Assembly: GCA_031552145.1 (NCBI GenBank)
Contig: JAVBMV010000003.1
Span: 211,930-275,929 of the forward strand
Reading direction: 5' to 3'
DNA from: Myxococcales bacterium
GTDB taxonomy: Bacteria > Myxococcota > Myxococcia > Myxococcales > UBA5297
DNA: 64,000 bases
Shown here one piece after another: positions 8,584-36,787 of this stretch (positions are counted from its first letter, which is position 1; each line of letters begins with the position of its first letter). The translations under genes and the position numbers were made by a program. The notes under the pieces are model-generated. The model was not told the DNA's origin. It saw only the letters and a list, made by a program, of their open reading frames with translations, and searched no databases.

Positions 8584-8753
8584 TGCCGCTCTCCGGAAGG
8601 GCTCGATGACCTGCTCAACACCGATGGCATGAAAAGGTGTCACCGCCAAGTGCGCTTCCGAGCGGCCAGCCTCCCCAGCCAGCCCCAACGGTGGTAGAGC
8701 TAGCGCGGGCGCCGCGGCGCTGCGTTCCGGGACTCCACACAGAGGGACTCCAC

Positions 8754-10288: not shown

Positions 10289-10981
10289 ATGAAGACGACA
10301 GAGATCGAGTTGGTGAAGAAGCAGGTGGAGGCCGCGCTTACGTCACTGCGCGCGGGGCGCGGCGTGCTGGTCATGGATGACGAGGCACGGGAGAACGAGG
10401 GAGACCTCATCTTCGCCGCCGAGAGCATCACCACCGAGCAGATGGCGCTGCTCATCCGCACCTGCAGCGGCATCGTCTGCCTCTGCCTCACCCCCGAGAA
10501 GACCGAGCAGCTCGACCTGCCTATGATGGTAGCCAACAACACCAACCGGGGCGGCACCGGCTTCACGGTGAGTATCGAGGCCACCGTGGGCGTCACCACC
10601 GGCGTCTCGGCCGCCGACCGCGTCACCACCATCCGCGCCGCCGTCGCTCCCGACGCGCGCCCCTCCGACCTGCGCAGGCCGGGGCACATCTTCCCGCTGC
10701 GCGCGCGGGCGGGAGGCGTGCTGGAGCGGCAGGGACACACCGAGGCGACCGTCGATCTGATGCGCCTCGCCGGCCTCTCTCCCTGCGGCGTGCTCTGCGA
10801 GCTGATGAACCCCGACGGCACCATGGCGCGCCTGCCCGAGGTGGAGAGGTTCTCGCGCGAGCACCAGATTCCAATTCTCACCATCGAGGCGCTCATCGCC
10901 TATCGCAAGGCCTTCGACCTGCCGGGCGCGCAGAGCAGACCCTCCCCGCAGAGCCAGAAGCAGGTGGCGTGCGCGGGATAA
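10289..10981 (+). CDS. ribB: 3,4-dihydroxy-2-butanone-4-phosphate synthase
   Basis: [27 protein letters not shown] and [28 protein letters not shown] are hallmark RibB motifs. No GTP cyclohydrolase II domain. Confidence 0.9.
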
Positions 10982-11892
10982 AGAAGCGCGCCCGGCGTCT
11001 CACGCTGGCGCTGCTCTCCAGGAGGCGCTCGCTCTATTCAACCGGGCGCCTGCTCCAGGCCGCGCGCGAACGCTCGCTGAAGCCCATCCTGCTCGACTCT
11101 TCGCGCGTGAGCGCGGGGCTTGTCGATGGCAGGCTGACACTCTCGCAAGGCGGCGTTGCGATCCATGCGCCCGACGTGGCCATCCCGCGGATGGCGAGCT
11201 CGTCGAGCGCGAGCGGCCTCGCGCTGGCCAGGCAACTCGAGCTGATGGGGGTGCCGCTGCTCAACGGCTCCGAGGCGATCGCCCAGAGCCGCGACAAGCT
11301 CCGCTCGCTCCAGATGCTTGCCCGCGCCGGCATCCCCGTGCCCCGAAGCATCTTCGCGCCGCGCCGCACGGAGGTGGAGCCCCTCTTGGGCGAGTTGGAG
11401 GAGCGGTTCGGCGGTCTGCCCGTAATTCTGAAGCTGCTCCACGGCACGCACGGCGTGGGCGTCATGCTCGCCTCCACGCGCGAGGAGGCGCGGAGCGCCC
11501 TGGCCACGCTCTTCGAGCTGGGCGAGGAGTTGCTGGTACAAGAGTTCGTGGGGGAGGCGGAGGGGGCCGATCTGCGCGCCCTGGTGGTCGGCGAGCGCGT
11601 GGTGGCCACCATGCGCCGACGCGCGCGCGCCGGTGAGTTTCGCGCCAATCTGCACCGCGGCGGAGATGGCAGCCGCGCCACGCTCTCGGACGAAGCGGCG
11701 GCGCTCGCGGTGAAGGCTGCGCGCGCTGTCGGGCTGGAGGTCGCGGGCGTCGACCTGATCGAGTCGAAGCGCGGGCCACTCATCTTGGAGCTGAATGCCA
11801 GCCCAGGGTTGGAAGGGATAGAGCGCTCCACCGGGGTAGATGTGGCCGGCGCCATGGTCGACCGCGCGCTGGAGCTCTTGGCGCTGGGCTGA
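10969..11892 (+). CDS. rimK: RimK-family ATP-grasp alpha-L-glutamate ligase
   Basis: [58 protein letters not shown] and [26 protein letters not shown]. The GTG start overlaps the ribB end by 13 nt. Confidence 0.8.
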
Positions 11893-12958: not shown

Positions 12959-14293
12959 ATGCTCGAACGCCTAAAAGAGATCATCCTCGATCGCCAGGAA
13001 TCCGTACTTGAGCCGGGGACACCGAGGCGTCTGGAATATGCCTCGATGCCGAGGAAAGCATCTGTCTTCATCGGCGTGCGCAGGTGCGGGAAGTCCACCT
13101 TCATGGCCCAGCAGATGGAGCGTCTACTCGCCGAGGGCGCTCCTCGCCAGAGCTTCCTCTATCTCAATTTCTTCGATGACCGGCTTCACGAGCTTCGCCA
13201 GGGCAAGTTGGAGCGAATCATGGAGGCTTGGTTTGCGCTCTACCCCGAAAAGAAAGGAAGGGAGAAAACCTATTGCTTCTTCGATGAGCTCCAGATGCTT
13301 CCGGGTTGGGAGTCCTTCGTCGAACGACTGATGCGCGAAGAGAATTGCGAGGTCTTCATTACTGGCTCTTCGGCGCAGATGCTGTCGCGCGAGATCGCTA
13401 CTCAGATGAGAGGTCGCGCGCTCACCTGGGAACTCTTCCCCTTCTCCTTTCGTGAATACCTCGACTTTCACGGGGTCGACGGCGACGCTCCTCTCTCGAC
13501 GAGGAGACGTCTGCTGATACAGCGCGCCTTCGACGACTACTGGGAGCGGGGCGGTTTCCCCGAGGTTGCCGGGGTCGAACGCTCCCTTCGAATCAAGCTT
13601 CACCAGGAGTATTTCAACGCGCTCCTATTTCGAGACCTGATCGAGCGCCACGATGTCGCGCATCCCAAGGCGGTAACCGACCTCGCATACTGGCTCATCG
13701 ACAACACGGCGTCGCTCTATACGATCAACCGTCTGACAGGGTACCTGAAATCGCTGGGGCACACGGCTCCCAAGGCGACGGTTTCCAGCTATCTCGACTG
13801 GTTCGAGGATGCCTATTTCTTCTTCACGGTACGTCTCTTCGACGCTTCGCTTGCGCGCTCGCATGCGAACCCCAAGAAGATCTACTGCGTCGACCACGCG
13901 CTCATTACGTCCACGAGCTCCGGGGTCCTGGTCAACTCGGGGCATTTGCTCGAGAACCTCGTCTTCATGGCTCTGCGGCGAGTGACCTCCGAGATCTACT
14001 ATCTCCGCACCCGTAATGGCCGCGAGGTCGACTTCATAGCGCGGCTCCCAGATCGCTCGCGGCTCCTGGTTCAGGTCTGCGAGTCGCTCGTTGAGCCCGC
14101 GACCAGGAAGCGCGAAGTAACGGCGCTCGCCGAGGCAATGCAGGAGCAAGGGCTCTCGCGCGGCGTAATCGTGACGCGCCGCGAAGAGGAGCAGATCGAC
14201 CTCGCCAACGGAACCATCGAGGTGCTCCCGGCGTGGCGCTTTCTGCTGAGGCAGGCAGCCGGCAAAGGCCGGCGCCTCGCCGCGTCTCCTTAA
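12959..14293 (+). CDS. AAA_14/DUF4143-family ATPase
   Basis: 444 aa. Walker A GVRRCGKST and Walker B YCFFDELQ. The C-terminal region is typical of DUF4143 (VDFIARLPDRSRLLVQVCESL). Confidence 0.85.
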   Translation: MLERLKEIILDRQESVLEPGTPRRLEYASMPRKASVFIGVRRCGKSTFMAQQMERLLAEGAPRQSFLYLNFFDDRLHELRQGKLERIMEAWFALYPEKKGREKTYCFFDELQMLPGWESFVERLMREENCEVFITGSSAQMLSREIATQMRGRALTWELFPFSFREYLDFHGVDGDAPLSTRRRLLIQRAFDDYWERGGFPEVAGVERSLRIKLHQEYFNALLFRDLIERHDVAHPKAVTDLAYWLIDNTASLYTINRLTGYLKSLGHTAPKATVSSYLDWFEDAYFFFTVRLFDASLARSHANPKKIYCVDHALITSTSSGVLVNSGHLLENLVFMALRRVTSEIYYLRTRNGREVDFIARLPDRSRLLVQVCESLVEPATRKREVTALAEAMQEQGLSRGVIVTRREEEQIDLANGTIEVLPAWRFLLRQAAGKGRRLAASP

Positions 14294-17200
14294 GGGACCT
14301 CTTCCACCCAGATCTCGAATGGGCCTCGGGCTGAATAGTCCTTTGCGTCCGCGAAGATGTAGTAGGTCTGGTTCGGAATAGGATTCGAGACCAGGACCGA
14401 CTCGGGCCTGGAGGAACTACCTCCGTCGACTCCCGCGACGCATTGGGTGACATCGCACGCGGTCGAGACCCAGAGCGTCGCATCCCAGTAGGGATTGGGC
14501 TTGAGAGAGACCTTGAAAGGCGTCGTCGTGGTGGGCGTGTAGCGATAGACCAGCTCGGCGCCACGGCCGCGCTCATACGATTTGGTGCAGCCGCCCGCCG
14601 CGCTCTTCCCAAAGGAGTAATCGGCGTTGGCGTTCGTATTGTCGCCCGATTGCCGGGGGTTCGCGTCGAGCTGGAGGGCGATGGCCCCCTCGCACCGGTC
14701 GTTCGGTGGCGGCGCCTTCGCCGTGTCGTGATCGACGACTTTTACGTAGAGTTTATGGCTTCCCACCGCCGCCATGTCCTTGTAGTCGACGAACACGAAG
14801 TAGTTCTGATTGGCAACGAGCTTGCGTACGACCAGGGCGTTCGACCCCGTGGTGCGCCCATCGATGCAGGCCAGCTCATTCTCCTGCAAGTCGGACTCAC
14901 AGCTATTGCGCAAATAGATGAAGGGCGCCGGAGCGCCGGTGACATAGAGGCTCAGATCAAAGTCCCGGGGATAACGAAGCGAATAGGTAAAATCGGGGCC
15001 ATGGAGCGCCTCGCACAGCCCCGTGGTCGTCGTGTCGGCGTCGTATTTCGTGAAGACGCGCCCGGCCTGCTCGTTATAGTCGCCCGCGACGGGGAGCACG
15101 ATCTCCTGGAGGCCGGCGCATCCACCAGGAATTGGCACGACGACCTCTGATTCCAAGGCGAGATCGACCCAGAAGCTGCCACCGGCGGCCGCCGAGTTGC
15201 TGTCGACCCACAGGTAATAGTCGGCGCCTCCCGCCAGTTGGGGTGCTTCGATCGAGGCGGTCCTGCCGCCGGTCGGGGCATGACAGGCCAACCGATAGAC
15301 GAGGTCATGCGCTCCGCAGACCGGGCGTAGATAGAGGGCGGGAACGAAATCGGCGTCGACAATCGCTTTGAAGCCATACGGATGATCCAGATGGAAGCGA
15401 TAGACTTTCTCGGGACCGTTCGAGGCGCCACAGAGACCGGTCGTGTCGTGGCGTGCATCATCGAGCGTCCCGCTGATGGAGGCCCTCGAGTTCGTGAACG
15501 AGACGACCGCGCTCTCTGGAAAGGGCTCGACGCAGGTGTCGTTGGCGGCCAGCCGGTCTGGGGACAACGCTCGCACGTCGATTGTGAATCTCCCCGAAGC
15601 TTCGGGAGCGACCGCGTCGACGACGATGTAGACGCGCTGCTCGGAGGTCAGGTGAACGGACGCCACCGCCGACGCACCAACGGCGCTCGCCGTCGCGCAC
15701 GCCAGCTCGCTCTCGGGGTCGGTGTCACAGGACGCGCGCAGGTGGAGGGAAGGCAGATAGATACCCTCAAACGCAGTTCCCTCGGCCGTCAAGGCTACTG
15801 TGAGGGTTCTCCCGGCGGGCGCGTCGACGGCGTAGACCAGGTCGGGCCCGCCCATCGCGGCGCAGGTGCCGCTCATGTCATCTCGTCCACTCTCGATCCC
15901 GGTCGCGCTGGCGAGGCTTCCGCGGCCCAGGGCATCGAGCGCGATCACCGGAAGCTCGGGCGCATCGCAGCTATCATTCTCGGCGGGCGGCGGCGTGAGC
16001 ACCTTCGTGACGACGAGCGTGTAGGGCAGGGGCGTCGCCTCCACGGCGTAGATGTTCGTCGTATCGACGAAGAGATAATAGACGCCGGGGCCGAGCGCCA
16101 ATTCCTCTATTGTGGCGTTTCCGTTGGATCCCAGAACACAGGCGTCCGCGACGGGCGAGGCGCCCGCGCACTCCTCTCCCGAGCGTACATAGAGGGCCGG
16201 CCTATCGAATTGACTGGTCGAAGTCCAATAGAAGGTCATGCTCCCAATCACCGTGGCGCTGATCGTCGCCGGTGCGTCGAGGTCGAGCCTATAGACGTGC
16301 TCGGGGCCCACGAAACCTGTCGGAAGATTACAGTCGCCCAGCTCGTCGCTCTGCTCTCCCCAGAGAAGGCCCGAAACTACGGCAAGTCCTTTGCCATCGA
16401 AGGGGGGGAGCTCGGCTGCGTCCTCGCAGGTCTCTGGAGCCGCGTCTCGGACAAAAGAGGCGACCACGGTGAAGGGGCCGCCTGCCGTCGGCGACGAGCC
16501 GTCGACCCACAGATAATAGGTCTCCTCGAGCTCCGACGAAATGGTGGTCCGGATCGACACGGGTTGCCCGGCGCTCCCCGCCATCTCGCACGAAAGTGCC
16601 GAGGCCTGACTCCCGCAGACGGTCCTGATCTCGGGATTGAGCGCCATCCCCGACCCCGGCGAAGGGACGAGCGTCGCGATGAGCGTGCCCGGGCCCGCAA
16701 GCCGCATCTGGAACGCAGCCTCCGCGCCCGACCAATTGTTGCAGGAGTTATGCATGGTGCTCGTACGACCCGCGGTGGTGCCGTTCGCCAGGGCATACCC
16801 ACTCGAGAGATCGAGGACCGTCGCGGCCTCGCAGAGGGCCCGAACACCGGCGGGCACGGAGGTCGGCGCTGCGCTGGGAGGAGGATGCGTCGGCAGCATG
16901 CTCCCGGTCGGGACGAGGTCGATGTCGCCGTAGAATATATGGTCCTGCCTTCCATAGCCGCTGTCGAACCAGATGACATATGTCCCCGGTGGAATGTCCT
17001 CCCAGATGACCTGCGCCTTGCCACCCATGCGGCGGTCACATTTCGCGAGCGCGGGAGGCGGCTCGGAGGTGGGCACGAAGAGCGTACAGTCGGTCGCGGA
17101 GACAATCCGCTGTACGTCGATGGAGGCAGTAAAGCTGCTCCTCTCGGGATAGACATGGTTGACCGCGAGCGTCCAGCCTTCCCCGGTCGCCTCCGGCACC

Positions 17201-20200
17201 TCGATGAGGACGGCATAGTCCCTGGCCGGCTGCATCCCGCCCTCGCCGCCCGGCATCAGCTCGGGCGTTCCACACTGCCGATCATGATTCCCCTCGGCTT
17301 TCGAGGTGTCGCCCACGATGCGCGCATATCCATTCTCGTCGAGAGCGACGGGGCTCGCCGTCTCGCAGGCGTCGCCCTTGGGATGGAAGAGCTCTACCGC
17401 GAGCTGAAAGGCGTCGCCATAGGGACCGACGCTGTCGATGATGACGAAATAGTCTCCTCCAGCAGCGCGCTCTATCTCCACATCACCGGAGGGAGAGCAG
17501 ACGGTCTCGGATGCAGGCGCGTCACACTCCCTCCGCAGGTAGATGATCGGGGCGTAAAGCGGCATCGCGCCTTCGGCGGGCGCGACCTTCGCGCGGAGTC
17601 CAAAGGAGGAGGGTTCGGGAATAGAGATTCGGTAGATTGCCTCCGGACCGCCGGGATTGCCCGGGGCGCAGCTCGCCGTGGGCTGTTGCCGATCGACGCC
17701 CCAGGACGTCGTGCCCTGGAAGGTGACCGAGGGATTCTGGGGGGAGAGCTCGGTCGCGGAGAGCGCCTCTCCACATTCGAGCGGAGTGTCGTCCTGCGGT
17801 GCCGGCGTCAGCTCCAGGTCGAGCATGTATTCACCGGCGAGGGGTCTAACGGAGTCCACCCACAGATAGTAGACGCCGTGGGGGAGCATGACGTCGAGGG
17901 CCGTCGGCCCACCCTGATTGGCCGAGGAGGCAACGAGCTCGTTCGACACGTCGGCCAAGACGCAGCTGGGGCCACGCAGATAGAGCACCGCGCTTCCCGT
18001 GGCCTGGGCGAAGGTGAGTCGCGCCTTCAGATGCGCTACCTGGAGCGAGACGGGGATCTCATAGACCACGTCCGGACCATCGCCGAGCGACAGCCTCGCC
18101 GAGCCACCATTGTTTGTCGCGAGCGATGTATTACCGAGGAGCGTCTTGGCCTGAACGAGCTCCAGATCGCTGACCGGCTCGGCCGTATTACAGGCATCGG
18201 CGATGGGAACCTCCGCCGGGACGGTGGAGAGTTCGAGCGCATAGTCACCATAGGTCGAAGTCCCTGTCGCCGACTCGATTCCATCGACGATGACATAGAA
18301 GGTGTCCCCCGGGTTCGCGTAGGCCGAGACGATGGCGAAGGTCCCCGTCGCCGCGTTGGCGCAGGCGATCTCGTCCCCCGGATCCGCGCCGAGGCACCCC
18401 CCCGCGCGGCGCAGATAGAGCGCCGGCAGATAATCGGGCGAGTTCACGCTCTTGTGTAGGCGCGCGGTGAAGATGGCAGCATCGGGGACTTCAATCCAAT
18501 AGACGAGATCGGCGCCGGTGTGCGGGGTGGCGGCGCTAGAACAGGTACCCACATAGTCGTTCCGGGCGTCCGCGGTCGATTGCTCCCGTAGTACCAGCGT
18601 CGACGGTGCGGCGCCGAGGAGCCTCCCTCCGGCGAGAGCTGCTCCTTCACAGGTGTCTTCGAGCGGCGGCGTGCCGCGCTTCACCGCTTCGACTCGAAGC
18701 GTAAAAGGACCCTCTGTCTGGTAGCCGGACGAATCGACGAAGGCAAAGAGCTCTTCTCCTCCCTCGACATTTCGCACCTGGAAGGTGACTGCCCTCCCCT
18801 GCTCGGCCGTATAACAGGCGCGATCGCTTGGCGCGTCGCACGCATCGCGGACATAGACAGCCGGCGCGAGCAGGGGATTCTCCGCCTCAGGCATCAGCGT
18901 GAAGGCGTAGTGGCGTGCGTCGGGCAGACTGAGCCGATAGACGAGATCGCCGCCCGCCGTGGTCGGCTTGCAGCGAGCGACGCTGTCATCGACTCCTTGA
19001 AAGGTATCACCGCGAATCGTCGCGACGCGCACGGCGTCATCGAGCGCTCCGTCGAAATGGACCCATTCGGCCGCGGGATCACATCGATCATGGGTTTCAT
19101 CGACATTCGATTCGGAGATCGAGAGCCAAACCTCGAAGGGGCCGTCCGCGCCTTCGACGCCGCTATCGACCAACAGGAAATAGCTCCTCCCGGCGCCGAG
19201 CTTGTATGCGGTGGCACTCAGATCGCCATCCACCGCCCTTGCGCACGCCCGTTCGTTCCCCTCGGAGTATGGCTGACATGAACCCCGCACGCTCGCCAGG
19301 GCCACATGCGCCGAGCCGGGGAGCCGAGGTATGTCGATGGCAACATCTCGAAACCCCTCCCCTTCCGGCAGGTCGAGCCGCCAATAGAGTTCGCGACCCG
19401 TATCGCCATCGGCGCAGCTGCTGGTCTCCGTATTCGAGCTCGCCGACGTATTGCCTCTCAATACCATCGTGGAGGAGTCGGAGAGCACGATCGGCGCTGC
19501 GGTGCCACAGCTCGTATTGACGGGAATGGGGTGCAGATAGAGATGCAGATCAAACTCGCCCTCGGTGCCCTGAGCGCCATCGATCACCAGCGTATAGTCG
19601 CCTGGCACCGAGAGCGCGTGTTGGAGGCGAACCATCTCCGTCGGCGACGCTGCATGTTCGCATCGATCGCCGACGAGGTGCGCGCCATCACATCCTCCCT
19701 CATATACATAGACCACGGGAATGAACCCGCGCGAGTGTTCTTTTGCCACAACTGCGATACTGGCGTAAACGGGCTCGTCCGTGTGGATGCGGTAATAAAC
19801 ATCCGCGCCCCGCGCGTCGCAGACCGAGGGGGCGCGCTCGTGACCCGCGTCGAGCGTCTTCCCCTCGACATGGAGGTAGCGCGTCTCGGGGTCGACGACC
19901 AGCTGATAGGGAAGGCTCGCGCTGCCGGGCTCCTCGATCGCGTCGCAGAGATCGTTATAGGGGGCCTCTCCGCGAGCGGGTATCTCGATAGTCAATTCGA
20001 AGGGGCCGGCGCGATCGCCGAAAGTATCGACGATAAGATAATAGGTGCTGCGCGGTGCGAGCCCAAAGGCGTCGATCGTGAGAGGCAGCGCGACGTGGGG
20101 CGCATGATCGCAGCTTCCCGAGAGTTCGGTGCCCGCGTCGGCGCAGGACGAGCGCAGATAGATAGCACCCTGGTAGGTCGAGTCGACCGGCGTGGCGGTC

Positions 20201-21975
20201 ACATGGAGATTTCGCGTCGGGCCCGAGGGCAAAGAGATGGCGTAGACGAGATCGCCGCCATCGTTCAACAAGTGGCAGCTTCCCGTCAGATTGTTTGAGG
20301 CAACCCGCGTATCTCCGCCGACCTGCTGAACCGTCGACACGGTGAAATCGAGCGGGACGTGGGCATCCAGACACGAGTCGTTGGTGACGACGGGCAGGAG
20401 CTCGATCGAGAGGGTGAAGTCGGCGGGCGCAAGGGCACCGACGCGCAGCGTGTACCTCGTGCCGCCGGTGAGCAGACCCTTCCCGAGCCACGCCGCGCCT
20501 TCCGTTCCTTCGGCGCACGCATATTCGCCGCCGTCACAATCGGTCAGCAAGGTCAAGAAGGGGGCCACCCGCTCATCGGCTGTCTTCACCGTAATGGCGG
20601 CAGCGGTGTCGGCCGCGGGAGTCAGCGTGTAATAGATGTCCGGACCCACGAACCTACAGGCGCTTGCAGGGAGATCGGGCGTCGCGGAGAAGAGAGTTCC
20701 GCTCTCGTCGATCGATCCATGCAGCGCCAGTGGCACGGCGTCGGCACAGTGATCATTGGCGTGGCGCTCGGCGGTGGGCCTGAGCGTGACGCGGAGGTCG
20801 CTCACGCCGCACCTGGAGGCCTGCCACGCGTCGGCCCAAAGATAGACGACCGCTCCCTCTCCTCCGCCTACCTGCGGCGCCGTGAGCTCGTAGGGAGTGT
20901 TGTCCCCCTGGCCGTTGGAACATACGAGCTCGGAGTCCGCGGCGTCGCAGATGTTTCTCAGATAGGTCTCTTGACGGACGAGGCTGCCCCACACCGGGGT
21001 CACCGAAACAGAGAGCTCGCCCATTTCGGGTAGATGAACCCGATATACGACATCTCCCCCGGAATAGTGGGCACAGGAGCTCTGTGCCGATCCGGTTGCG
21101 CGACAATTATTGGTCCGGACCGTCGCGACGAAGAGGCGCTCGCTACCGAGCCCCTCTTCGATCAAGAAGAGATCCTCCGCCGACGCGCACTCGTCATTCG
21201 ATGGGACGGCGCGCGGATCGGAACAGACGTTGTTGATGCAGAGCTCGGACTCGGGACACGGCTCGTGCCCCGTCACCGCCCCGCAGTCCTCGATTCGAAC
21301 CACCTCGCCGCAGCGATTTCGCGCATGGTAGGTTCCGCAGTTCTTGCCGGCGTCCGTACAGAGTTCCTCGATGGTCTCGGGGACACAGTCGCATTGGTTG
21401 GTGGCGGGATTGCATCGCTCGACCTCTGCTTCGCAGGGATCTCCGCAGTCGTAGTCTCGCGATTCATCGCAGCGGTCCGCGAGCGTCCCTTGACCACACA
21501 CCGCGCCATAGAGCACGCCCGCGAGCGCGCAGAGCGCCTCTTCGGGCTCCCCTTCGCAAAGGCACGCTCCGGCTTCGCTGCAACTCTCGTATTCTTTGCA
21601 ATGGTTCTCACAGAGACCTTCATGGTATTGGCCGCAAGGATCGGTTCCCTCGATAGACCCGCACACTCTGCCTACATGATCACAGTACTCCTGGTCCGAC
21701 ATGGGACACTCACGAGGAATGCAGCGATACTGCTCGCATTTCTCGGCTTCGGAGTCGCACGGGCCGCACTCCCCGCCACAGCCATCATCCCCGCATTCTC
21801 GCCCTTCGCATTGCCGAACACAGGCGTCGGCATCTGGCTCCACGGCATCGGGTCCACCCACGTCTCGATCGGGAGAGGGCACATCGGGCAGCTCATCTAC
21901 GACGATGTCTCGCGTGCCACAGGTCGCCGCCACGCAGAGAGAGAAGACCACGATCATCATCTTTCGTTGCCACAT
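14290..21975 (-). CDS. Giant secreted cysteine-rich protein with 16 tandem PPC-like domains (2561 aa)
   Basis: Uninterrupted ORF. RBS AAGGAGG 4 nt before the ATG. N-terminal hydrophobic signal MMIVVFSLCVAATCG. Clear domain periodicity (see the repeat feature). Confidence 0.9.
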   Translation of the reverse strand: MWQRKMMIVVFSLCVAATCGTRDIVVDELPDVPSPDRDVGGPDAVEPDADACVRQCEGRECGDDGCGGECGPCDSEAEKCEQYRCIPRECPMSDQEYCDHVGRVCGSIEGTDPCGQYHEGLCENHCKEYESCSEAGACLCEGEPEEALCALAGVLYGAVCGQGTLADRCDESRDYDCGDPCEAEVERCNPATNQCDCVPETIEELCTDAGKNCGTYHARNRCGEVVRIEDCGAVTGHEPCPESELCINNVCSDPRAVPSNDECASAEDLFLIEEGLGSERLFVATVRTNNCRATGSAQSSCAHYSGGDVVYRVHLPEMGELSVSVTPVWGSLVRQETYLRNICDAADSELVCSNGQGDNTPYELTAPQVGGGEGAVVYLWADAWQASRCGVSDLRVTLRPTAERHANDHCADAVPLALHGSIDESGTLFSATPDLPASACRFVGPDIYYTLTPAADTAAAITVKTADERVAPFLTLLTDCDGGEYACAEGTEGAAWLGKGLLTGGTRYTLRVGALAPADFTLSIELLPVVTNDSCLDAHVPLDFTVSTVQQVGGDTRVASNNLTGSCHLLNDGGDLVYAISLPSGPTRNLHVTATPVDSTYQGAIYLRSSCADAGTELSGSCDHAPHVALPLTIDAFGLAPRSTYYLIVDTFGDRAGPFELTIEIPARGEAPYNDLCDAIEEPGSASLPYQLVVDPETRYLHVEGKTLDAGHERAPSVCDARGADVYYRIHTDEPVYASIAVVAKEHSRGFIPVVYVYEGGCDGAHLVGDRCEHAASPTEMVRLQHALSVPGDYTLVIDGAQGTEGEFDLHLYLHPIPVNTSCGTAAPIVLSDSSTMVLRGNTSASSNTETSSCADGDTGRELYWRLDLPEGEGFRDVAIDIPRLPGSAHVALASVRGSCQPYSEGNERACARAVDGDLSATAYKLGAGRSYFLLVDSGVEGADGPFEVWLSISESNVDETHDRCDPAAEWVHFDGALDDAVRVATIRGDTFQGVDDSVARCKPTTAGGDLVYRLSLPDARHYAFTLMPEAENPLLAPAVYVRDACDAPSDRACYTAEQGRAVTFQVRNVEGGEELFAFVDSSGYQTEGPFTLRVEAVKRGTPPLEDTCEGAALAGGRLLGAAPSTLVLREQSTADARNDYVGTCSSAATPHTGADLVYWIEVPDAAIFTARLHKSVNSPDYLPALYLRRAGGCLGADPGDEIACANAATGTFAIVSAYANPGDTFYVIVDGIESATGTSTYGDYALELSTVPAEVPIADACNTAEPVSDLELVQAKTLLGNTSLATNNGGSARLSLGDGPDVVYEIPVSLQVAHLKARLTFAQATGSAVLYLRGPSCVLADVSNELVASSANQGGPTALDVMLPHGVYYLWVDSVRPLAGEYMLDLELTPAPQDDTPLECGEALSATELSPQNPSVTFQGTTSWGVDRQQPTASCAPGNPGGPEAIYRISIPEPSSFGLRAKVAPAEGAMPLYAPIIYLRRECDAPASETVCSPSGDVEIERAAGGDYFVIIDSVGPYGDAFQLAVELFHPKGDACETASPVALDENGYARIVGDTSKAEGNHDRQCGTPELMPGGEGGMQPARDYAVLIEVPEATGEGWTLAVNHVYPERSSFTASIDVQRIVSATDCTLFVPTSEPPPALAKCDRRMGGKAQVIWEDIPPGTYVIWFDSGYGRQDHIFYGDIDLVPTGSMLPTHPPPSAAPTSVPAGVRALCEAATVLDLSSGYALANGTTAGRTSTMHNSCNNWSGAEAAFQMRLAGPGTLIATLVPSPGSGMALNPEIRTVCGSQASALSCEMAGSAGQPVSIRTTISSELEETYYLWVDGSSPTAGGPFTVVASFVRDAAPETCEDAAELPPFDGKGLAVVSGLLWGEQSDELGDCNLPTGFVGPEHVYRLDLDAPATISATVIGSMTFYWTSTSQFDRPALYVRSGEECAGASPVADACVLGSNGNATIEELALGPGVYYLFVDTTNIYAVEATPLPYTLVVTKVLTPPPAENDSCDAPELPVIALDALGRGSLASATGIESGRDDMSGTCAAMGGPDLVYAVDAPAGRTLTVALTAEGTAFEGIYLPSLHLRASCDTDPESELACATASAVGASAVASVHLTSEQRVYIVVDAVAPEASGRFTIDVRALSPDRLAANDTCVEPFPESAVVSFTNSRASISGTLDDARHDTTGLCGASNGPEKVYRFHLDHPYGFKAIVDADFVPALYLRPVCGAHDLVYRLACHAPTGGRTASIEAPQLAGGADYYLWVDSNSAAAGGSFWVDLALESEVVVPIPGGCAGLQEIVLPVAGDYNEQAGRVFTKYDADTTTTGLCEALHGPDFTYSLRYPRDFDLSLYVTGAPAPFIYLRNSCESDLQENELACIDGRTTGSNALVVRKLVANQNYFVFVDYKDMAAVGSHKLYVKVVDHDTAKAPPPNDRCEGAIALQLDANPRQSGDNTNANADYSFGKSAAGGCTKSYERGRGAELVYRYTPTTTTPFKVSLKPNPYWDATLWVSTACDVTQCVAGVDGGSSSRPESVLVSNPIPNQTYYIFADAKDYSARGPFEIWVEEVP
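14293..21198 (-). repeat. 16 tandem ~144-aa protein domains (N-D-x-C ... G-x-D-L-V-Y ... L-Y-L-R-x-x-C ... Y-Y-L-x-V-D ... G-P-F-x-L)
   Basis: Hand alignment. Central strands include GGDVVYRVHLP, GPDIYYTLTP, GGDLVYAISLP, GADVYYRIHT, GRELYWRLDLP, GGDLVYRLSLP, GADLVYWIEVP, GPDVVYEIPV, GPEAIYRISIP, ARDYAVLIEVP, GAEAAFQMRL, GPEHVYRLDL, GPDLVYAVDAP, GPEKVYRFHL, GPDFTYSLRYP, GAELVYRYTP. Confidence 0.75.
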
Positions 21976-22005
21976 GACTCCTCCTTTTCGAACGACGGAC
22001 TTCGA

Positions 22006-23214
22006 CTACGGGGGCGCTGGATCATCGGGGAGACAGTCGCGTTCGAGTCGCGCCGCTTCACCAGCAATGGCGGAATCGGACGAAGCACCCAGCCGCGCCA
22101 ACAGCTCGCGCGCGGCGTAGATCTGCCCCTCTCGGCAGAGCAACCCCGCCCGGATCAAGGCGACGCGCGGTGTCCTGGGGTCGCCCGGATACTTTCCTTC
22201 GAAGCGCGAGGCCGCCTCGATTGCTTCAGCGTGCCGTCCCAGCTTGATCAAGATTTCGAGCCGCTTCGACGCGGCCTCGGGCGCGAGCGCTCCCTCGGGG
22301 AAACGTCGCTCGAAGAGCTCGAAGGTTTCGAGCGCGCGCCCTTGTCCCTTGGGCGACGCCTGCATCAGCAGGCCCATCGTATAGAGGGCGTTCTGGCTGG
22401 AGAGATCGTCGCCAGCGGCACGGGCTCCAAGGCAGTCGAGTGCTTCCTCACGGTCGGCCTGCTCTTCGCATCTGGGCGGCCGTGGGGCGGAGGGAAGGGA
22501 GCGCTCCGGGAGCCGTCGTGCGCTCCTCTTTGCCTGCGCCTCAGGGCGTTCCAGCGACAGATTCTGGGCGCGGGAGGGCACACCGAGCGGGGCCGCAAGG
22601 CGCGGGTCGTCTGAGCGAATGGACTCATTCGGCGCAAGAACCGCAGCGCCTCCGTCACCTTCGACGCGCACGCTGCCTTCGATGAGTCCGACCCGAGTCG
22701 AGGGCGCGGCGACCTCGATCTCCAGCCGCGTCCCCAGGACCACCACACGAAGATGGGGCGTGATCAGCACCACCGGGCGATCCTTGGCCTGGCGCAGAAT
22801 GGCGGCGCGGTACCGTCCGGGACCGAGCTCTATCTGCCGCTCTTCCGGCCGGTCTCTCAGCACGACCTCCGAACCGGGAGAGCTCTCGAACGTGCCGATT
22901 TCGGGGATCTCTATCCCGTTCCATTGTGTGGACACGGCGAAGCGGGGAGCGTCATTGGTGGGCAGGGACGCGTCCCGCCGAGACAGGAGGGCGATGGCGA
23001 GCACCGCCACGACGACCACCGCGCCCGCCAGGGCGGCGATCCATCGATGTGATTTGAGGCCGTCAGGCGCGGAAAGTGACTCTCGAACCCGCCACCAAAC
23101 CGCCGCGTGTTGGGCGCGATCGCTCTCGAGATGACGCCGCGCTTCGCGCACCCAGCGCCCCAGCTCGCGCTCTTCGCCCTCATCATGTCGAGAGAGTCTT
23201 CTCGGCTCATTCAT
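22006..23214 (-). CDS. FecR-like transmembrane anti-sigma factor with TPR-like C-terminus
   Basis: 402 aa. Cytoplasmic N-terminus and one TM (WIAALAGAVVVVAVLAIALL). FecR-type LRVVVLGTRLEIEV...VGLIEGSVRVEG. ATGA overlap with the sigma stop (23211-23214). Confidence 0.8.
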   Translation of the reverse strand: MNEPRRLSRHDEGEERELGRWVREARRHLESDRAQHAAVWWRVRESLSAPDGLKSHRWIAALAGAVVVVAVLAIALLSRRDASLPTNDAPRFAVSTQWNGIEIPEIGTFESSPGSEVVLRDRPEERQIELGPGRYRAAILRQAKDRPVVLITPHLRVVVLGTRLEIEVAAPSTRVGLIEGSVRVEGDGGAAVLAPNESIRSDDPRLAAPLGVPSRAQNLSLERPEAQAKRSARRLPERSLPSAPRPPRCEEQADREEALDCLGARAAGDDLSSQNALYTMGLLMQASPKGQGRALETFELFERRFPEGALAPEAASKRLEILIKLGRHAEAIEAASRFEGKYPGDPRTPRVALIRAGLLCREGQIYAARELLARLGASSDSAIAGEAARLERDCLPDDPAPP

Positions 23215-23750
23215 GATGCACTCGCCCCTCTCTTCGCCTTCAGCAGCTCGTGGCGCGCCGAACAGAGGCGCGAATAGACGGTCTTCACCGGGACGTTCAG
23301 GAGCTCCGCGATCTCGACACAGCTCAGCTCTTGGATCTCAAACAGAATGAACACGACCCTCTTCTTCTCGGGCAACGCTTCGAGGAGGTGGTAGAGCGCC
23401 CGCGTCGACTCTTCCTCGATGAGCTCCTTCTCGGCGGACGCCTCGACGGAGGGCGCACCCCAGAATCCAGTCCGACGCACGAGCTGCCGGAGGTGACGTG
23501 TGCGTCGCCGGTTCGCCGCCAGTCCCAGCGCGACGCGCGTCAGCCACGACCGTGGCAGCTCCAGCTCGAGCGATGAGCGCTTCCGATGGGCGATCAGGAA
23601 GACGTCGTGCGTCAGGTCCTCGGCGTCGACCGCGGAGCCAAGGACGCGCATCAGCAATGTCTGCACATAGGGACCGTGCTCCTCGTAGAGGCGCTCGAGA
23701 TCGAGCGCCTTGGCGAGAACGGGATCCGCTTTCATGGAGAGCGCGCGCAC
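23211..23750 (-). CDS. ECF-type RNA polymerase sigma factor
   Basis: 179 aa. Region 2 (LYEEHGPYVQTLLMRVLGSAVDAEDLTHDVFLIAH) and region 4 (LSCVEIAELLNVPVKTVYSRL). GTG start with AAGGGTG upstream; an alternative ATG lies at 23735. Confidence 0.9.
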   Translation of the reverse strand: MRALSMKADPVLAKALDLERLYEEHGPYVQTLLMRVLGSAVDAEDLTHDVFLIAHRKRSSLELELPRSWLTRVALGLAANRRRTRHLRQLVRRTGFWGAPSVEASAEKELIEEESTRALYHLLEALPEKKRVVFILFEIQELSCVEIAELLNVPVKTVYSRLCSARHELLKAKRGASAS

Positions 23751-23804
23751 TGAGTCACCCTTGCGGTCTGCGAAGCATTCGCCCTCTACAGAGTTCCGAG
23801 CACT

Positions 23805-24725
23805 TCAGATCCCCCATTCCCAGCGCCAATCGAAGCCCGTCGTGAGCGCGGCGACGGCCCACCCCATCTCGGCCGCGCCCCCTGCCAGCTCCGAGTGGAG
23901 TCGAAGCGCATAAGGGTGCGCGAGGAGGTCGACCTGGGTCGACCAAGCGAGCGCCTCAGAGAGCGCGAGGCGGAGCCGGACCGCCGCCATCAGCCCCATG
24001 AGAGCGATCGACCGCTCTCCTCTCGCTTCCCCTCCGAGGGAGGTCGCCGAGACGAGGCTCAACGCAGGACCTCCCATGGCGAAGAGTTCCAGCCCCGACT
24101 CGAGCTCGATCCTCACTCCCGCCGAGGCCCCGAGAGCGAGCCGCCTCAGCTCGAGCTGCCCTCGAAGCCCTCGGGTCCTCCAGGACGCTTCGTGCCGCGC
24201 GAAGAGTCCCGCTCGCCAGAGAGGCGTCACCTCGATCTCGGCGCCGATGAAGCCCGACATGGCGGGGCGCTGGAGATGCCGATCGAAAGCGGCGCCCATG
24301 AGCAGGAGGAGATCGATACGGGCGGGGTGCTGCGCGCGAGAAGGCTCTGTCGTGGGAGCAGCCGCGGCGGCGACCGGCCCGCGCTGGGATACCCGCGACG
24401 CATTCTTGAGCCACTCGTCGTTCAGCCAGCTCTCGATCAACAGGACCACGGTCTCGGCGAGGCTGGCACAATCGGACGAGGCGACCTGGAGCGTCCTCGC
24501 CTGCGTCATCGTCGGACCGCGGAGCTCGACGCGGAGCGCCTCCTCGCCCGCGCCCCGGACGACGAGCGACCAATCTGGATGAGCCCGCAGAGGGTCTTCG
24601 ACGCGCAGGGCAAAGGCGCCAGGGTCGCCGCAGGGGAGCGATCCAACGTCGATCCTCGAGCCGGCGGAAGCGCTCGGCGCGCTCGCGACGGTGAGCCCCA
24701 CCAAGAGAAACAGAGAGACCGTCAT
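23805..24725 (-). CDS. Hypothetical secreted beta-strand-rich protein (possible outer-membrane protein)
   Basis: Start chosen at MTVSLFLLVGLTVASAPSASA (signal peptide); the maximal ORF runs to 24797. The C-terminal half has alternating hydrophobic strands ending ...TTGFDWRWEWGI. No motif recognised. Confidence 0.55.
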   Translation of the reverse strand: MTVSLFLLVGLTVASAPSASAGSRIDVGSLPCGDPGAFALRVEDPLRAHPDWSLVVRGAGEEALRVELRGPTMTQARTLQVASSDCASLAETVVLLIESWLNDEWLKNASRVSQRGPVAAAAAPTTEPSRAQHPARIDLLLLMGAAFDRHLQRPAMSGFIGAEIEVTPLWRAGLFARHEASWRTRGLRGQLELRRLALGASAGVRIELESGLELFAMGGPALSLVSATSLGGEARGERSIALMGLMAAVRLRLALSEALAWSTQVDLLAHPYALRLHSELAGGAAEMGWAVAALTTGFDWRWEWGI

Positions 24726-24956
24726 GGCTCGCAAATCTGTCGTGGACCCGGCCCGGATCGTTCCCTCGTCGCTCGGCGGAGGCGAGCGTGGAGACATCGA
24801 CAGAGTGAGCGTGAAGGGCAGCGCCCCTTCCTGTCAAGGTGGAGCTCCGCAGGACGAACCCAAAAACTGCGAGAGGGCCGGCTCGCGCCGACCCTCTCGA
24901 GACTGCGATCTGCCAATCGAGGCGCGCAGCAAGCGGCGCCCCAACAGCGCTACGTC

Positions 24957-26195
24957 CTAAAAGCCGTGCAGTACCAGCCCGCTGCGCAGCTTGGGCTCGA
25001 ACCAGGTGCTCTTCGGCGGCATGATCTGGCCGGCGTCGGCGATGCTCATGAGCTGGTCGATCTGCGTGGGGAACATGGCGAAGGCCACCTTGGCCTGGCC
25101 AGCGTCGACGCGCTTCTCCAGCTCCTGCATGCCGCGGATGCCGCCCGAGAAGTCGATGCGCTTGTCGGTGCGCGGATCCTTGATGCCGAGGACGGGGCCG
25201 AGCAGGTTCTCCTGCAGAATGGAGACGTCGAGGTTCTTCACGGGATCCTTCTCGTCGAAGGTGCCCGCCTTGGCGGTGAGCATGTACCAGGCGCCCTCGA
25301 GGTACATACCGAAATCGTGCAGCTTCGAGGGGCTCTTCTGCGAGGAGGGCACCATGGTGAACTTGGCGCCGATCTCCGCCTTGAACTGCTCGACCGTGCG
25401 GCCGTTGAGATCTTTCACGAGCCGGTTGTAGTCCATGATCTGCATCTGGTTGTGCGGGAAGATCACGGCGAGGAAGTAGTCATGCTCGGCGTCGCCCGTG
25501 GGCTTCTTGCCAGCGCGCGCGGCGCGCGCCTCGGAGGTGCGGGCGGCGGCGGCGGAGCGGTGGTGGCCGTCGGCGATATAGGTCGCGGGGAGCTTCGCGA
25601 ACTCGCGCACCAGCGCGGCGATGTCGGCGTCGCCCGAGACGACCCAGAAGGTGTGGCGAATGCCGTCGTCGGTCTCGAAGTCATACTCGGGCTTCGCGGC
25701 GATGAGGCGGTTGACGATGTCGTCGATCTCCTTGCGCGCCGGATAGGTGAGGAAGACGGGCTCGTCATTGCCGTTGAGGCGATCGATGTGCTGGGTGCGA
25801 TCGTCCTCTTTGTCGGCGCGCGTCAGCTCGTGCTTCTTGATGGTGCCCTTGCGGTACTCCTCGCAGCTGGCGGCGGCGACGAGGCCCACCTGTTCGTGCT
25901 TCCCCATCTTCTGCTTGTAGAGATAGAGGCAGGGCTTGGCGTCGGCCTTCAGGTGCCCCTCTTTGACGAAGAGCTGCAGGTTGGTCAGGCCCAGGTCATA
26001 GACCTCGGGGGCGTGGGCGTCGGTGCCGGGGGGCAGGTCGATCTCGGGGCGGCTGATGCGGAAGAAGGAGAGCGGATTCCCCTTACCGTAGGCGCGCGCC
26101 TCCTCGCTGTCGACCACGTCATAGGGCGGGCACGCGACCTTGAGGACCTTCTCCTGGGGCGGGCGAAGTCCCGCGAATGGGCGAATGACTGACAT
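24957..26195 (-). CDS. DUF1015 family protein
   Basis: 412 aa. MSVIRPFAGLRPPQEKVLKVACPPYDVVDSEEA is the family N-terminus as I recall it. RBS GGAGAAAG. Confidence 0.85.
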   Translation of the reverse strand: MSVIRPFAGLRPPQEKVLKVACPPYDVVDSEEARAYGKGNPLSFFRISRPEIDLPPGTDAHAPEVYDLGLTNLQLFVKEGHLKADAKPCLYLYKQKMGKHEQVGLVAAASCEEYRKGTIKKHELTRADKEDDRTQHIDRLNGNDEPVFLTYPARKEIDDIVNRLIAAKPEYDFETDDGIRHTFWVVSGDADIAALVREFAKLPATYIADGHHRSAAAARTSEARAARAGKKPTGDAEHDYFLAVIFPHNQMQIMDYNRLVKDLNGRTVEQFKAEIGAKFTMVPSSQKSPSKLHDFGMYLEGAWYMLTAKAGTFDEKDPVKNLDVSILQENLLGPVLGIKDPRTDKRIDFSGGIRGMQELEKRVDAGQAKVAFAMFPTQIDQLMSIADAGQIMPPKSTWFEPKLRSGLVLHGF

Positions 26196-36603: not shown

Positions 36604-36787
36604 GTCATTCCCTTCGCGGTCTATCCGCGCCGTGGTGCTATCGCCCAGCGCCGCGGCGCCGTCAACCTTTGCGACATGTAGTCGCGAGTGATCTTCACTC
36701 TGACCAAACGGATTGACTGCTCTCGAGGTCCGCGTTCCCATTGCCCACAGAGAGTGGCGAGCTCGGGCGCCAGAGACGTCCTCGCTA

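Follow-up and report, generated by a model that had tools for sequence, protein, structure and literature searches.

The giant gene and its operon

The window (the whole stretch of DNA that was analysed, 64,000 nt) carries on its reverse strand a complete open reading frame of 2,561 codons, encoding a giant protein. Its ATG lies at position 21975, and a strong Shine-Dalgarno sequence (AAGGAGG) is found 5 nt upstream. The gene is the last of a four-gene operon, in which successive genes are separated by 54 nt, by a 4-nt overlap and by 30 nt: the end of the sigma factor gene shares 4 nt with the beginning of the FecR gene, and the FecR stop codon is located 30 nt upstream of the ATG of the giant gene. 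The start of the operon is marked by a terminator-like hairpin. The features outside the repeat array are given below in window positions.

24870-24899, reverse strand: terminator-like hairpin of 13 bp (10 G-C) followed by a T-run, closing the upstream DUF1015 gene
23805-24797, reverse strand: secreted protein of 306-330 aa (p330), first gene of the operon, with the C-terminus ...FDWRWEWGI
23211-23750, reverse strand: ECF-type sigma-70 factor (Sigma70_r2 and r4_2; TIGR02937 at 72.3 bits against 42.9)
22006-23214, reverse strand: anti-sigma factor with a FecR domain, a single TM segment and a TPR region at the C-terminus (Pfam FecR at 25.3 bits, cut-off 24, and weak TPR matches)
14290-21975, reverse strand: complete giant-protein gene, 2,561 aa, from the ORF list and its translation (stop codon at 14290-14292)
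21919-21975, reverse strand: signal peptide, aa 1-19 (MWQRKMMIVVFSLCVAATC), with the degenerate lipobox A-A-T-C, as read from the sequence
21823-21918, reverse strand: acidic, Pro/Asp-rich linker, aa 20-51, as read from the sequence; the same kind is present in relatives
21205-21822, reverse strand: N-terminal 32-Cys module, aa 52-257, placed by its cysteine positions

Both the ECF sigma factor and the FecR-domain anti-sigma factor pass their Pfam/NCBIfam cut-offs. The first gene product, p330, has no match in Pfam, NCBIfam or the PDB sequences beyond noise and is probably a small outer-membrane β-barrel. In the paralogue locus L002 the corresponding place is taken by a homologue, p303 (E 1.7e-16). 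Sigma/FecR cassettes also adjoin the paralogues P0003, P0037 and P0005, and upstream of P0006 lies a sigma-70-family gene. P0002, P0007 and P0010 lack such a neighbourhood. A search upstream of the paralogues for a shared ECF-type promoter motif gave none; TTGACA-like -35 boxes were seen there by eye only. No TonB-dependent transducer is encoded in the operon or among the window genes between 8.6 and 27 kb, the interval covered by the scan, and the operon itself holds no peptidase gene. A second ECF sigma operon, oriented like the giant gene and located around 6 kb past its 3' end, ends in a caspase-like Peptidase_C14 protein.

The lipobox of the giant protein (A-A-T-C at Cys19) is non-canonical when compared to [LVI][ASTVI][GAS]C. 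In the 47 large-array relatives, a lipobox was found by the strict pattern in 22 and by a relaxed pattern at the same place in 19, and by eye in most of the other six. The giant is thus probably lipid-anchored as well, an assignment that is borrowed from its relatives since its own lipobox is degenerate. The protein contains 98 cysteines, of which 34 precede residue 258 and two of these lie within the signal peptide. The count of about 32 cysteines after the signal peptide, and of 34 in the first 260 or so residues, made earlier by hand therefore holds. The N-terminal module consists of one 8-Cys unit, CxxxCEGRECGDDGCGGECGPC...C...C, followed by three 8-Cys repeats of 50-57 aa. In the AlphaFold2 (AF2) model each repeat is a helix with β-hairpins, with a pLDDT above 85 from model residue 41 on. 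The module had no match in Pfam or NCBIfam, yielded only noise in the PDB sequences, and gave nothing in a word-indexed homologue search.

Sixteen diverged units with two predicted disulfides

The original prediction described the remainder of the protein as sixteen tandem units of about 144 aa, in the interval 14293-21198, which corresponds to residues 260-2561 (2,302 aa). When the protein is cut at the recurring N-D-x-C motif, residues 258-2561 fall into 16 contiguous units with a mean period of 144 aa and lengths of 125-178 aa. Unless stated otherwise, the units below were delimited by this motif cut and supported by profile HMMs.

20764-21204, reverse strand: unit 1, aa 258-404, with six cysteines and the best PF23759 stretch (aa 260-356)
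20389-20763, reverse strand: unit 2, aa 405-529, from the motif cut, HMMs and an AF2 model
19963-20388, reverse strand: unit 3, aa 530-671, modelled singly (AF2 pLDDT 92.1)
19525-19962, reverse strand: unit 4, aa 672-817
19099-19524, reverse strand: unit 5, aa 818-959
18667-19098, reverse strand: unit 6, aa 960-1103
18208-18666, reverse strand: unit 7, aa 1104-1256, among the best conserved between paralogues
17791-18207, reverse strand: unit 8, aa 1257-1395, lacking C2 and C4, as does the orthologous unit of the paralogues
17383-17790, reverse strand: unit 9, aa 1396-1531
16849-17382, reverse strand: unit 10, aa 1532-1709, which diverges most from the others and carries insertions and, as a tail, about 25 Pro-rich residues
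16444-16848, reverse strand: unit 11, aa 1710-1844
15985-16443, reverse strand: unit 12, aa 1845-1997, with the only PF04151 stretch (aa 1893-1970)
15550-15984, reverse strand: unit 13, aa 1998-2142
15136-15549, reverse strand: unit 14, aa 2143-2280, well conserved between paralogues
14710-15135, reverse strand: unit 15, aa 2281-2422
14293-14709, reverse strand: unit 16, aa 2423-2561, the terminal subtype ('tip'), in which C3 and C4 lie close together, ending at the stop codon

The unit consensus shows NDxCxxA, GxDxVY, PxLYLRxxC...ExAC and YYLxVD...GxFxL, so that all motifs quoted before are present in it. When an HMM is built from the giant's own units alone, P0002, P0003 and P0005 each prove to contain 16 of them (per-unit E-values between 1e-8 and 1e-27), and a profile dominated by units of other proteins finds all 16 units of the giant at E-values from 1e-17 to 1e-32. 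The sixteen-unit repeat is established far above chance and without circularity. Pairwise identity among the units averages about 22%, and self-BLASTP of the protein returns no internal matches because the units are too diverged. On the DNA level, TRF detects no array of about 430 nt; the sole repeats are motif-level matches of 21-49 nt at the YYLxVD codons, in agreement with the earlier remark that no long DNA identity is visible. No sorting signal follows unit 16, whose end is the stop codon.

The pairing of the four unit cysteines was predicted from their covariation over 1,422 units. All four are present in 1,282 units; C2 and C4 are jointly lost in 75 and C1 and C3 in six, and the pairs C1+C2 and C3+C4 are never lost together. 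This pattern of joint loss implies two disulfides per unit, C1-C3 and C2-C4. With two such bonds in each unit, folding would have to take place outside the cytoplasm.

High-GC windows give rise to many long spurious ORFs, and the GC3 of the giant ORF (0.75) is below that of the flanking housekeeping genes. Such figures could point to an artefact, whether a spurious ORF, a chimeric assembly or a tandem amplification of recent date. A protein search with the giant, however, gave eight homologues, related clusters number in the thousands (see below), the AF2 models are confident and the Shine-Dalgarno sequence is strong. The same gene was recovered in an independent Logan assembly, and a protein already on record, P0001, is identical to the giant. 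A spurious ORF is discarded based on the homologues, the confident unit model and the Shine-Dalgarno sequence, and a recent amplification based on the DNA repeat searches, in which a repeat at the DNA level is absent. The giant gene is real, and the artefact reading, whose probability is negligible, is already refuted.

An enlarged PPC-like domain in a large family

The original prediction likened the units to bacterial pre-peptidase C-terminal (PPC) domains, and modelling bears this out. The AF2 model of unit 3 (pLDDT 92.1) is a β-jelly-roll of nine β-strands. In Foldseek, its best solved matches are the C-terminal jelly-roll of Tk-SP, the collagen-binding domains (CBDs) of ColG/ColH and a collagenase PPC domain (1nqd, 1nqj, 3jqw, 5sv5 and 3afg, at E-values from 4e-5 to 5e-4), the CBDs giving target-normalised TM-scores of 0.62-0.72. 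A second model, covering the N-terminal module and units 1-2 (pLDDT 88, pTM 0.71), has the tandem ColG CBD 5iku as top fold match (E 1.4e-9). When the unit profile is compared to the PDB sequences, eight matches fall below E = 1, and seven of them are chains of the PPC/CBD kind, led by 2luw (E 6.5e-4) and including 5sv5 at E 0.021. As modelled, the units are PPC/collagen-binding-type β-jelly-roll domains.

Pfam gives a more divided answer. PF23759 (GBD_T9SS_assoc) scores 45.3 bits on the whole protein against a curated cut-off of 27 (E 1.2e-11), its model aligning from the N-D-x-C start of unit 1 over about 100 residues. PF04151, the PPC family itself, reaches 23.6 bits, just under its cut-off of 25.9, in the one stretch within unit 12. 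On single units neither family passes: PF23759 peaks at 21.1 bits and finds three of the 16 units at E<=1, PF04151 one of 16. PF23759 also matches most of the shorter relatives, and some relatives do exceed the PF04151 cut-off (P0097 with 45 bits, P0075 with 44.5 bits). Apart from these weak PF23759/PF04151 matches, no other domain was detected in the giant by Pfam or NCBIfam, and NCBIfam gave nothing for the giant protein or its N-terminal module. The absence of an enzyme domain noted earlier is thus upheld, as no catalytic domain was detected by either database. We take the 'T9SS-associated' sense of PF23759 from the Pfam family name alone. The giant differs from what that name suggests, since Pfam and NCBIfam show no T9SS C-terminal sorting domain and the last unit ends at the stop; its source is, in addition, probably a Myxococcota-like bacterium.

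The PPC family PF04151 includes the s3a/s3b domains of ColG and ColH of Hathewaya (Clostridium) histolytica. A β-jelly-roll is present in both these domains and the giant's units, and so is a motif skeleton consisting of an N-D-x-x-x-x-A start, (D/G)-x-D-x-(V/F/W)-Y, a strand of hydrophobic character with L-Y-L and, towards the end, G-x-Y-Y-(L/I)-x-V. Both are extracytoplasmic, and tandem pairs such as ColG s3a-s3b are known among PPC domains. The differences lie in the absence of an upstream peptidase, in the 16 copies compared to the usual one to three, in the two conserved disulfides of the giant's units and in their size, i.e. about 140 aa against about 70-110 aa for PPC domains in proteases, with an extra N-terminal part of about 35-45 aa. 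In ColG, calcium is chelated by residues of the N-terminal linker and the β-strands. In the giant's units the N-D pair at the unit start and the Asp of GxDxVY are conserved, but the HMMER alignments to ColG begin only at profile position 47. The units are best described as an enlarged, disulfide-bearing branch of the PPC/galactose-binding-like superfamily and not as a new fold.

The unit profile retrieves 30,290 protein clusters at E<=1e-3, many of which are arrays of 5-24 units; around 30 clusters have 15-17 units. Other searches were less productive: a word-indexed homologue search with the unit profile returned nothing, a contig scan of GTDB representatives with the giant protein alone found no relative, and a contig scan with a full-length alignment keyed on the Cys motif gave mostly unrelated lipoproteins. 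The family has a common architecture of lipoprotein signal, acidic linker, 32-Cys module and units up to the C-terminus, and in most relatives the units stop exactly there. Every named relative is a 'hypothetical protein', and a literature search by Pfam accession, by Cys motif and for myxococcotal PPC arrays gave nothing relevant to the family, which is large and abundant in metagenomes, yet unstudied. The suggestion of an undescribed repeat family therefore holds in part. Existing Pfam models do touch the domain and its relatives are numerous, but no single unit passes a cut-off, the named relatives are all 'hypothetical' and the literature search gave no paper on them. The superfamily (PPC/collagen-binding/galactose-binding-like) is known; the form is undescribed, namely enlarged, with two disulfides, enzyme-free, probably lipid-anchored and in arrays of up to 24 units.

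A single sample contains at least six or seven paralogues. For each of the giant's units, the best match in P0002 is the unit at the same position (16/16), and the unit order is kept at 12 of the 16 positions with respect to P0003; this positional comparison is score-based, per-unit identity by end-gap-free global alignment being non-discriminating. Positions 7, 8, 14 and 16 are much better conserved between paralogues than the others. The preserved order of the units argues that the array is ancient, in line with the earlier judgement that it is old and not recently amplified.

Proposed function of the array

The reading we favour, with a probability of about one half, is that the giant is a secreted, probably lipid-anchored, non-enzymatic surface binding fibre of 16 PPC/CBD-type domains, with sigma-coupled expression. 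The gene, its 16 units with their fold class and conserved order, the lack of a recognisable catalytic domain, the covariation of the cysteines, the size of the family and the layout of the operon are direct results of the analysis. Beyond these, we infer a lipidated chain of extended shape, located at the outer membrane or cell surface, that would bind ligands and be controlled by the adjacent sigma factor. The chain would reach outwards from the outer membrane over tens of nanometres as a fibre, with the distinct unit 16 as its distal tip, and would hold on to polymers, e.g. prey or matrix proteins or glycans, as a non-catalytic and multivalent binder or adhesin. Its expression would be coupled to the ECF sigma/FecR-type anti-sigma pair of the same operon. 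According to PMC6168687, insoluble substrates such as collagen are bound by the PPC/CBD domains of secreted proteases.

Several observations argue against parts of this reading. Across the units, no conserved residue lies outside the structural core, and hence a ligand site shared by them is not apparent. To be exposed at the surface, a lipoprotein has to be exported by some route, and no candidate for it was found. Control by the sigma factor is weakened by the lack of the cassette at P0002, P0007 and P0010 and of a shared ECF-type promoter motif.

Long strings of non-catalytic modules that are exported to the envelope, with dissimilar adjacent modules, are known as giant β-sandwich adhesins. 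Compared to these as a general class, the giant is likewise a long non-catalytic β-sandwich string with dissimilar neighbours. It differs by its PPC-like instead of Ig/BIg/cadherin-like domains, its predicted heavy disulfide bonding, its probable N-terminal lipid anchor in place of T1SS, autotransporter or sortase, and a conserved number of 16 units in which each position has its own identity.

That conservation is confined to core and disulfide positions would also suit a structural coat or matrix protein (S-layer-like, spore-coat or extracellular-matrix), in which the domains are rigid spacers without a specific ligand. The low identity of neighbouring domains (22%), as in other spacer-type multidomain proteins, and the multiple paralogues in one sample point the same way. 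We consider this unlikely, as the array positions keep their own identity across paralogues, with 7, 8, 14 and 16 far better conserved, which fits position-specific surfaces better than anonymous spacers, and as the closest solved relatives are binding domains.

Since PPC/CBD domains usually serve secreted peptidases, the array might instead dock secreted proteases or hydrolases, or capture their substrates, as a scaffoldin-like non-catalytic partner. The DNA probably stems from a Myxococcota-like bacterium, and known members of this phylum secrete many hydrolases; the second ECF sigma operon, about 6 kb beyond the giant gene, ends with the Peptidase_C14 protein. Against this, the operon has no peptidase gene, a conserved surface patch was not detected across the units, and a dockerin-like partner module is not known; such a scaffold appears rather improbable.

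The operon invites a comparison with FecI/FecR signalling, in which an ECF sigma factor and a single-pass FecR anti-sigma factor are likewise encoded together with the gene of an envelope protein. Here, however, the partners are a giant lipoprotein and a small probable β-barrel instead of a TonB-dependent transducer, and the anti-sigma factor has a C-terminal TPR region. The giant might be the extracellular sensor arm of a new cell-surface signalling system, in which ligand binding to the array or mechanical load on it would be passed via the membrane-proximal Cys-rich module to the periplasmic TPR/FecR portion of the anti-sigma factor, releasing the ECF sigma factor. The shared operon with the small probable outer-membrane protein and the homologous cassettes next to three more paralogues, suggesting matched sets, speak for this. 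The reading is doubtful in view of the missing TonB-dependent transducer and N-terminal signalling domain and the three paralogues without a cassette; the adjacency is equally explained if the giant is a mere regulon target. In a broader version, which we regard as quite improbable, the four products of the operon (giant, probable β-barrel, FecR/TPR anti-sigma factor, ECF sigma factor) would form one hitherto unrecognised lipoprotein-based system of surface display and signalling, whose fibre senses contact or a polymeric ligand and controls its own sigma factor, and which would exist as several matched paralogous sets in one Myxococcota-like genome.

A dedicated profile would allow correct annotation of giant proteins that are now 'hypothetical' and number in the thousands. 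With its 16 diverged units in strict positional orthology, the array also offers a clean natural case for the stability of unit number and identity in long repeat proteins. If the binding-fibre or the signalling reading is true, these proteins would rank among the main determinants of the cell surface in uncultured Myxococcota-like bacteria, with a bearing on adhesion, predation or matrix building.

Giant gene and operon

The giant protein P0001 is encoded by a single ORF of 2,561 codons (window 14290-21975, minus strand), with GAAAAGGAGGAGTC immediately 5' of its earliest possible start codon. Its GC3 of 0.75, within DNA of about 67% GC, shows a third-position bias as in real genes, and the identical protein is recorded at NCBI and in an independent Logan assembly (run SRR23967709). 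An artefact as the source of the array is excluded. Residues 260-2561 span window 14293-21198, where the original prediction had placed sixteen tandem units of about 144 aa. The giant is the last of four genes in one operon, which is preceded by a hairpin:

24899-24870: terminator-like hairpin, 5' of p330
23805-24797, minus strand: p330, the first operon gene, encoding a secreted protein of 306-330 aa
23211-23750: ECF sigma factor
22006-23214: FecR-domain anti-sigma factor; single TM segment, TPR region at the C-terminal end

The gap between the FecR gene and the giant is 30 nt, and the operon layout shows that the giant is co-transcribed with the sigma/anti-sigma pair. No family match was obtained for p330; its C-terminal half consists of alternating hydrophobic strands and its end, ...FDWRWEWGI, resembles an outer-membrane β-strand signal, so that it looks like a predicted outer-membrane β-barrel. 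A homologue, p303, is present at the matching position of the paralogous locus L002; p303 and homologues of the sigma and FecR genes sit between the array protein P0003 and its neighbour, another giant (2,594 aa). Among the other array proteins, P0005 is preceded by a FecR homologue and P0006 by a sigma-70-family gene, while no sigma/FecR-type genes flank P0002, P0007 or P0010, and a shared ECF-type promoter was not found. The association of the giant with sigma/FecR is genuine in the source organism, but not universal. There, the adjacent ECF sigma factor might control expression of the giant. A new signalling cassette in which the giant acts as sensor arm seems unlikely. Quite improbable, too, is a single lipoprotein-based unit for signalling at the surface, in which the giant would be joined with the small outer-membrane protein, the sigma factor and the FecR/TPR anti-sigma factor.

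Elsewhere in the window, the following features were found:

12959-14293, plus strand: AAA_14 ATPase with DUF4143 and a weak Mrr-like nuclease region, convergent to the giant
8029-8688, minus strand: sigma factor of a second ECF sigma operon (4941-8688, minus strand)
7196-8032, minus strand: 278-aa protein without known family, second operon
4941-7376, minus strand: caspase-like Peptidase_C14 protein of about 750-810 aa, second operon
31129-36741, minus strand: another giant, Cys-rich, 1,870 aa, with several Kelch β-propeller regions
10289-10981, 10969-11892, 24957-26195 and 26259-27155: metabolic proteins forming singletons

The stop codons of the AAA_14 gene and the giant overlap, the two ORFs sharing 14290-14293. 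Block 12959-24797 (AAA_14/DUF4143 gene, giant, sigma/FecR/p330) has a GC of 0.62-0.65 and a GC3 of 0.75-0.82, lower than the flanking housekeeping genes (0.68-0.72 and 0.85-0.92), which fits an accessory or faster-evolving region. In the 1,870-aa giant, Cys-rich repeats of the Disintegrin and Dicty_CTDC types score weakly, below threshold. A parallel is seen at L075 2668-5967: the relative P0007 has a Kelch-repeat protein and an ECF sigma factor no more than about 8 kb away. Kelch-type genes near both array proteins may be a coincidence. At 90% identity, the conserved metabolic proteins (RibB-like DHBP synthase, RimK, DUF1015, DHDPS) each stand alone in their cluster within a collection of about 15 billion proteins, which holds no close sequenced relative of the source organism. 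A scan of the GTDB representative set did not find the gene of the giant.

Repeat units and their fold

Cut at the N-D-x-C motif, the protein yields 16 contiguous units of 125-178 aa (mean period 144 aa), with a mean pairwise identity of 22% and the consensus xxNDxCxxA...G.T..A...C....GxDxVY...PxLYLRxxC......C......GxYYLxVD.....GxFxL. An HMM built from these 16 units only finds 16 units each in P0002, P0003 and P0005, 15 in P0004, 13 in P0006, 8 in P0007 and 18 in P0008, and a profile made mostly of other proteins' units recovers 16/16 in the giant (E 1e-17 to 1e-32). Because both searches recover the units, the periodicity is real and no product of cutting at the motif, and the predicted number and length stand. 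As also predicted, the units share no long DNA identity: the gene has no DNA repeat of ~430 nt, and its internal matches are only 21-49 nt, over the YYLxVD codons. One unit is an outlier:

16849-17382, minus strand: unit 10, 178 aa

Extra residues are inserted ahead of its GxDxVY-equivalent strand and within the loop between the third and fourth conserved cysteines (C3-C4), and its tail of some 25 aa is Pro-rich (PTGSMLPTHPPPSAAPTSVPA). This long tail is absent from P0002, so a conserved central hinge at unit 10 is doubtful. Unit 16 stands apart as a subtype of its own, marked by a short C3-C4 spacing; on visual inspection, the three terminal units of P0007 are of this type. The array closes at the stop codon with unit 16, with no C-terminal sorting signal after it.

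Pfam recognises the giant only weakly. PF23759 (GBD_T9SS_assoc, galactose-binding-domain-like) passes on the whole giant with 45.3 bits (cut-off 27; best stretch on unit 1), while PF04151 (pre-peptidase C-terminal domain, PPC) misses with 23.6 bits on unit 12 (cut-off 25.9); scanned singly, 0/16 units reach either cut-off. The PF23759 alignment covers the N-terminal two-thirds of a unit from NDxC onward and that of PF04151 is confined to the GxDxVY-to-YYLxVD stretch. No NCBIfam match was found for the giant. An AlphaFold2 model of unit 3, with an alignment of 102 units as input, is a jelly-roll of nine β-strands (mean pLDDT 92.1, pTM 0.88). Its top group of Foldseek matches in the PDB comprises the Tk-SP C-terminal β-jelly-roll (9ues, 3afg), the collagen-binding domains (CBDs) of ColG and ColH (1nqd, 1nqj, 3jqw, 4hpk, 2o8o) and the PPC domain of Bacillus anthracis collagenase (5sv5), with gingipain adhesin domains, calpain C2-like domains and CBMs at lower ranks. 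A second model, of the N-terminal module with units 1-2 (482 aa, pLDDT 88.3, pTM 0.71), is closest to the tandem ColG CBD s3a-s3b (5iku, E 1.4e-9). Searched against PDB sequences, the 102-unit profile gives nine matches at E<10, and 7/8 below E = 1 are PPC/CBD chains (2luw 6.5e-4, 5sv5 0.021, five ColG CBD entries ~0.4-0.5). Therefore, the unit belongs to the PPC/CBD jelly-roll superfamily, in which it is an enlarged form, and the suspected PPC-likeness is confirmed. No catalytic domain was detectable anywhere in the giant, as originally noted.

Cysteines and the N-terminal module

The four cysteine columns of a unit (C1-C4 in sequence order) are kept in 91-99.5% of 1,422 units from 152 proteins and are complete in 1,282. 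C2 and C4 are lost jointly in 75 units, C1 and C3 in 6, and C1+C2 or C3+C4 in none of the 1,422. Since the columns are lost in those pairs, this covariation implies putative disulfides C1-C3 and C2-C4. Unit 8 of the giant lacks C2 and C4, as do its positional orthologues. Every unit of the giant has an even number of cysteines; the original counts proved correct, with 34 before residue 258 and 32 of these in the mature N-terminal module. The giant has 98 cysteines in total. About 48 disulfides could form, which would require folding outside the cytoplasm.

The signal peptide (residues 1-19) ends in a degenerate lipobox, A-A-T-C; among 47 large-array relatives, a lipobox at this position is strict in 22, relaxed in 19 and seen by eye in most others. 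It is followed by:

Directly after the signal peptide: acidic Pro/Asp-rich linker
21205-21822, minus strand: 32-Cys N-terminal module, aa 52-257
21205-21708, minus strand: three 8-Cys repeats of 50-57 aa each, aa 90-257

The module opens with one 8-Cys unit, CxxxCEGRECGDDGCGGECGPC...C...C, ahead of the three repeats (C-x8-C-x6-CG-x8-CG-x7-C-x3-C-x5-C-x5-C, often ...FCxRxxxxCG...DxCGxxRxVxC...), each of which folds in the model into a helix and β-hairpins (pLDDT mostly >90). The module, repeats included, has no match in Pfam, NCBIfam or PDB sequences, and its Cys motif is almost restricted to MAGs of Myxococcota, Bradymonadales, Oligoflexales and "Deltaproteobacteria". The source organism is probably Myxococcota-like.

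The first unit, generalised as CxxxCxG(R/K)xCGxDGCGGxCGxC...C...C (~38 aa), also occurs at loci L011, L031, L040, L043, L044 and L066, and forms long tandem arrays in many Myxococcota/Bradymonadales lipoproteins, ahead of mutually unrelated C-terminal domains (IgGFc_binding-like, SGL β-propeller, FGE-sulfatase). Neither Pfam nor NCBIfam has a model for this motif, and a literature search found nothing on it. In P0010 (16 units, locus L077), four or five copies of another repeat, CGNG...E.CD..NLN.KTC...GF..G.L.C...C, replace most 8-Cys repeats at aa ~200-390; it presumably resembles the Myxococcus cysteine-rich repeat. The membrane-proximal module appears interchangeable between array proteins.

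Family, age and probable role

A word-indexed protein search with the giant returned only eight proteins. When HMMER was run exhaustively with the unit profile, the number of cluster representatives recovered was 30,290 at E<=1e-3, falling to 14,395 at E<=1e-10 and to 3,375 at E<=1e-30. In the best 150 of the 30,290 the arrays comprise between 5 and 24 units; roughly 30 representatives, 2,350-2,700 aa long, have 15-17 of them. Most have the layout of the giant, in which the array extends to the very C-terminus. The few named relatives are all "hypothetical protein" from Myxococcales MAGs, and PF23759, PF04151 or both score on most shorter relatives. Literature searches on the array family found no study. 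The family is thus common, grazed by two existing Pfam models and itself unstudied. Of the proposed undescribed family, what stands is an unstudied, enlarged, disulfide-stapled branch; the superfamily to which it belongs is known, and the branch is very abundant in metagenomes.

The best match of each giant unit is the same-position unit of P0002 in 16/16 cases, usually by a wide margin, and the same holds for 12/16 with P0003 and 11/16 with P0005. Therefore, judged from these sequence matches, the 16-position array is older than the split of these paralogues, with each position individually kept, in line with the old array first proposed. Conservation is highest in units 7, 8, 14, 16 and 3. 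Run SRR23967709 contains P0001, P0002, P0003, P0005 and P0006, with P0001 and P0003 on one contig of 406,567 bp.

The giant is shown to be an exported, disulfide-rich, non-enzymatic chain of conserved architecture, in which a Cys-rich module precedes sixteen PPC-type jelly-rolls. For such a chain, a role as an inert coat or matrix spacer is improbable, and that of a scaffold docking enzymes or substrates more doubtful still. A binding fibre is our main reading, at a probability of roughly one half. The giant would be N-terminally acylated and placed at the outer membrane or cell surface, because sixteen end-to-end domains, if extended, exceed the periplasm; unit 16 would then form the distal tip. 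PPC/CBD domains are described as binding insoluble substrates (PMC6168687), and by analogy the array may serve a multivalent binding or adhesive role.
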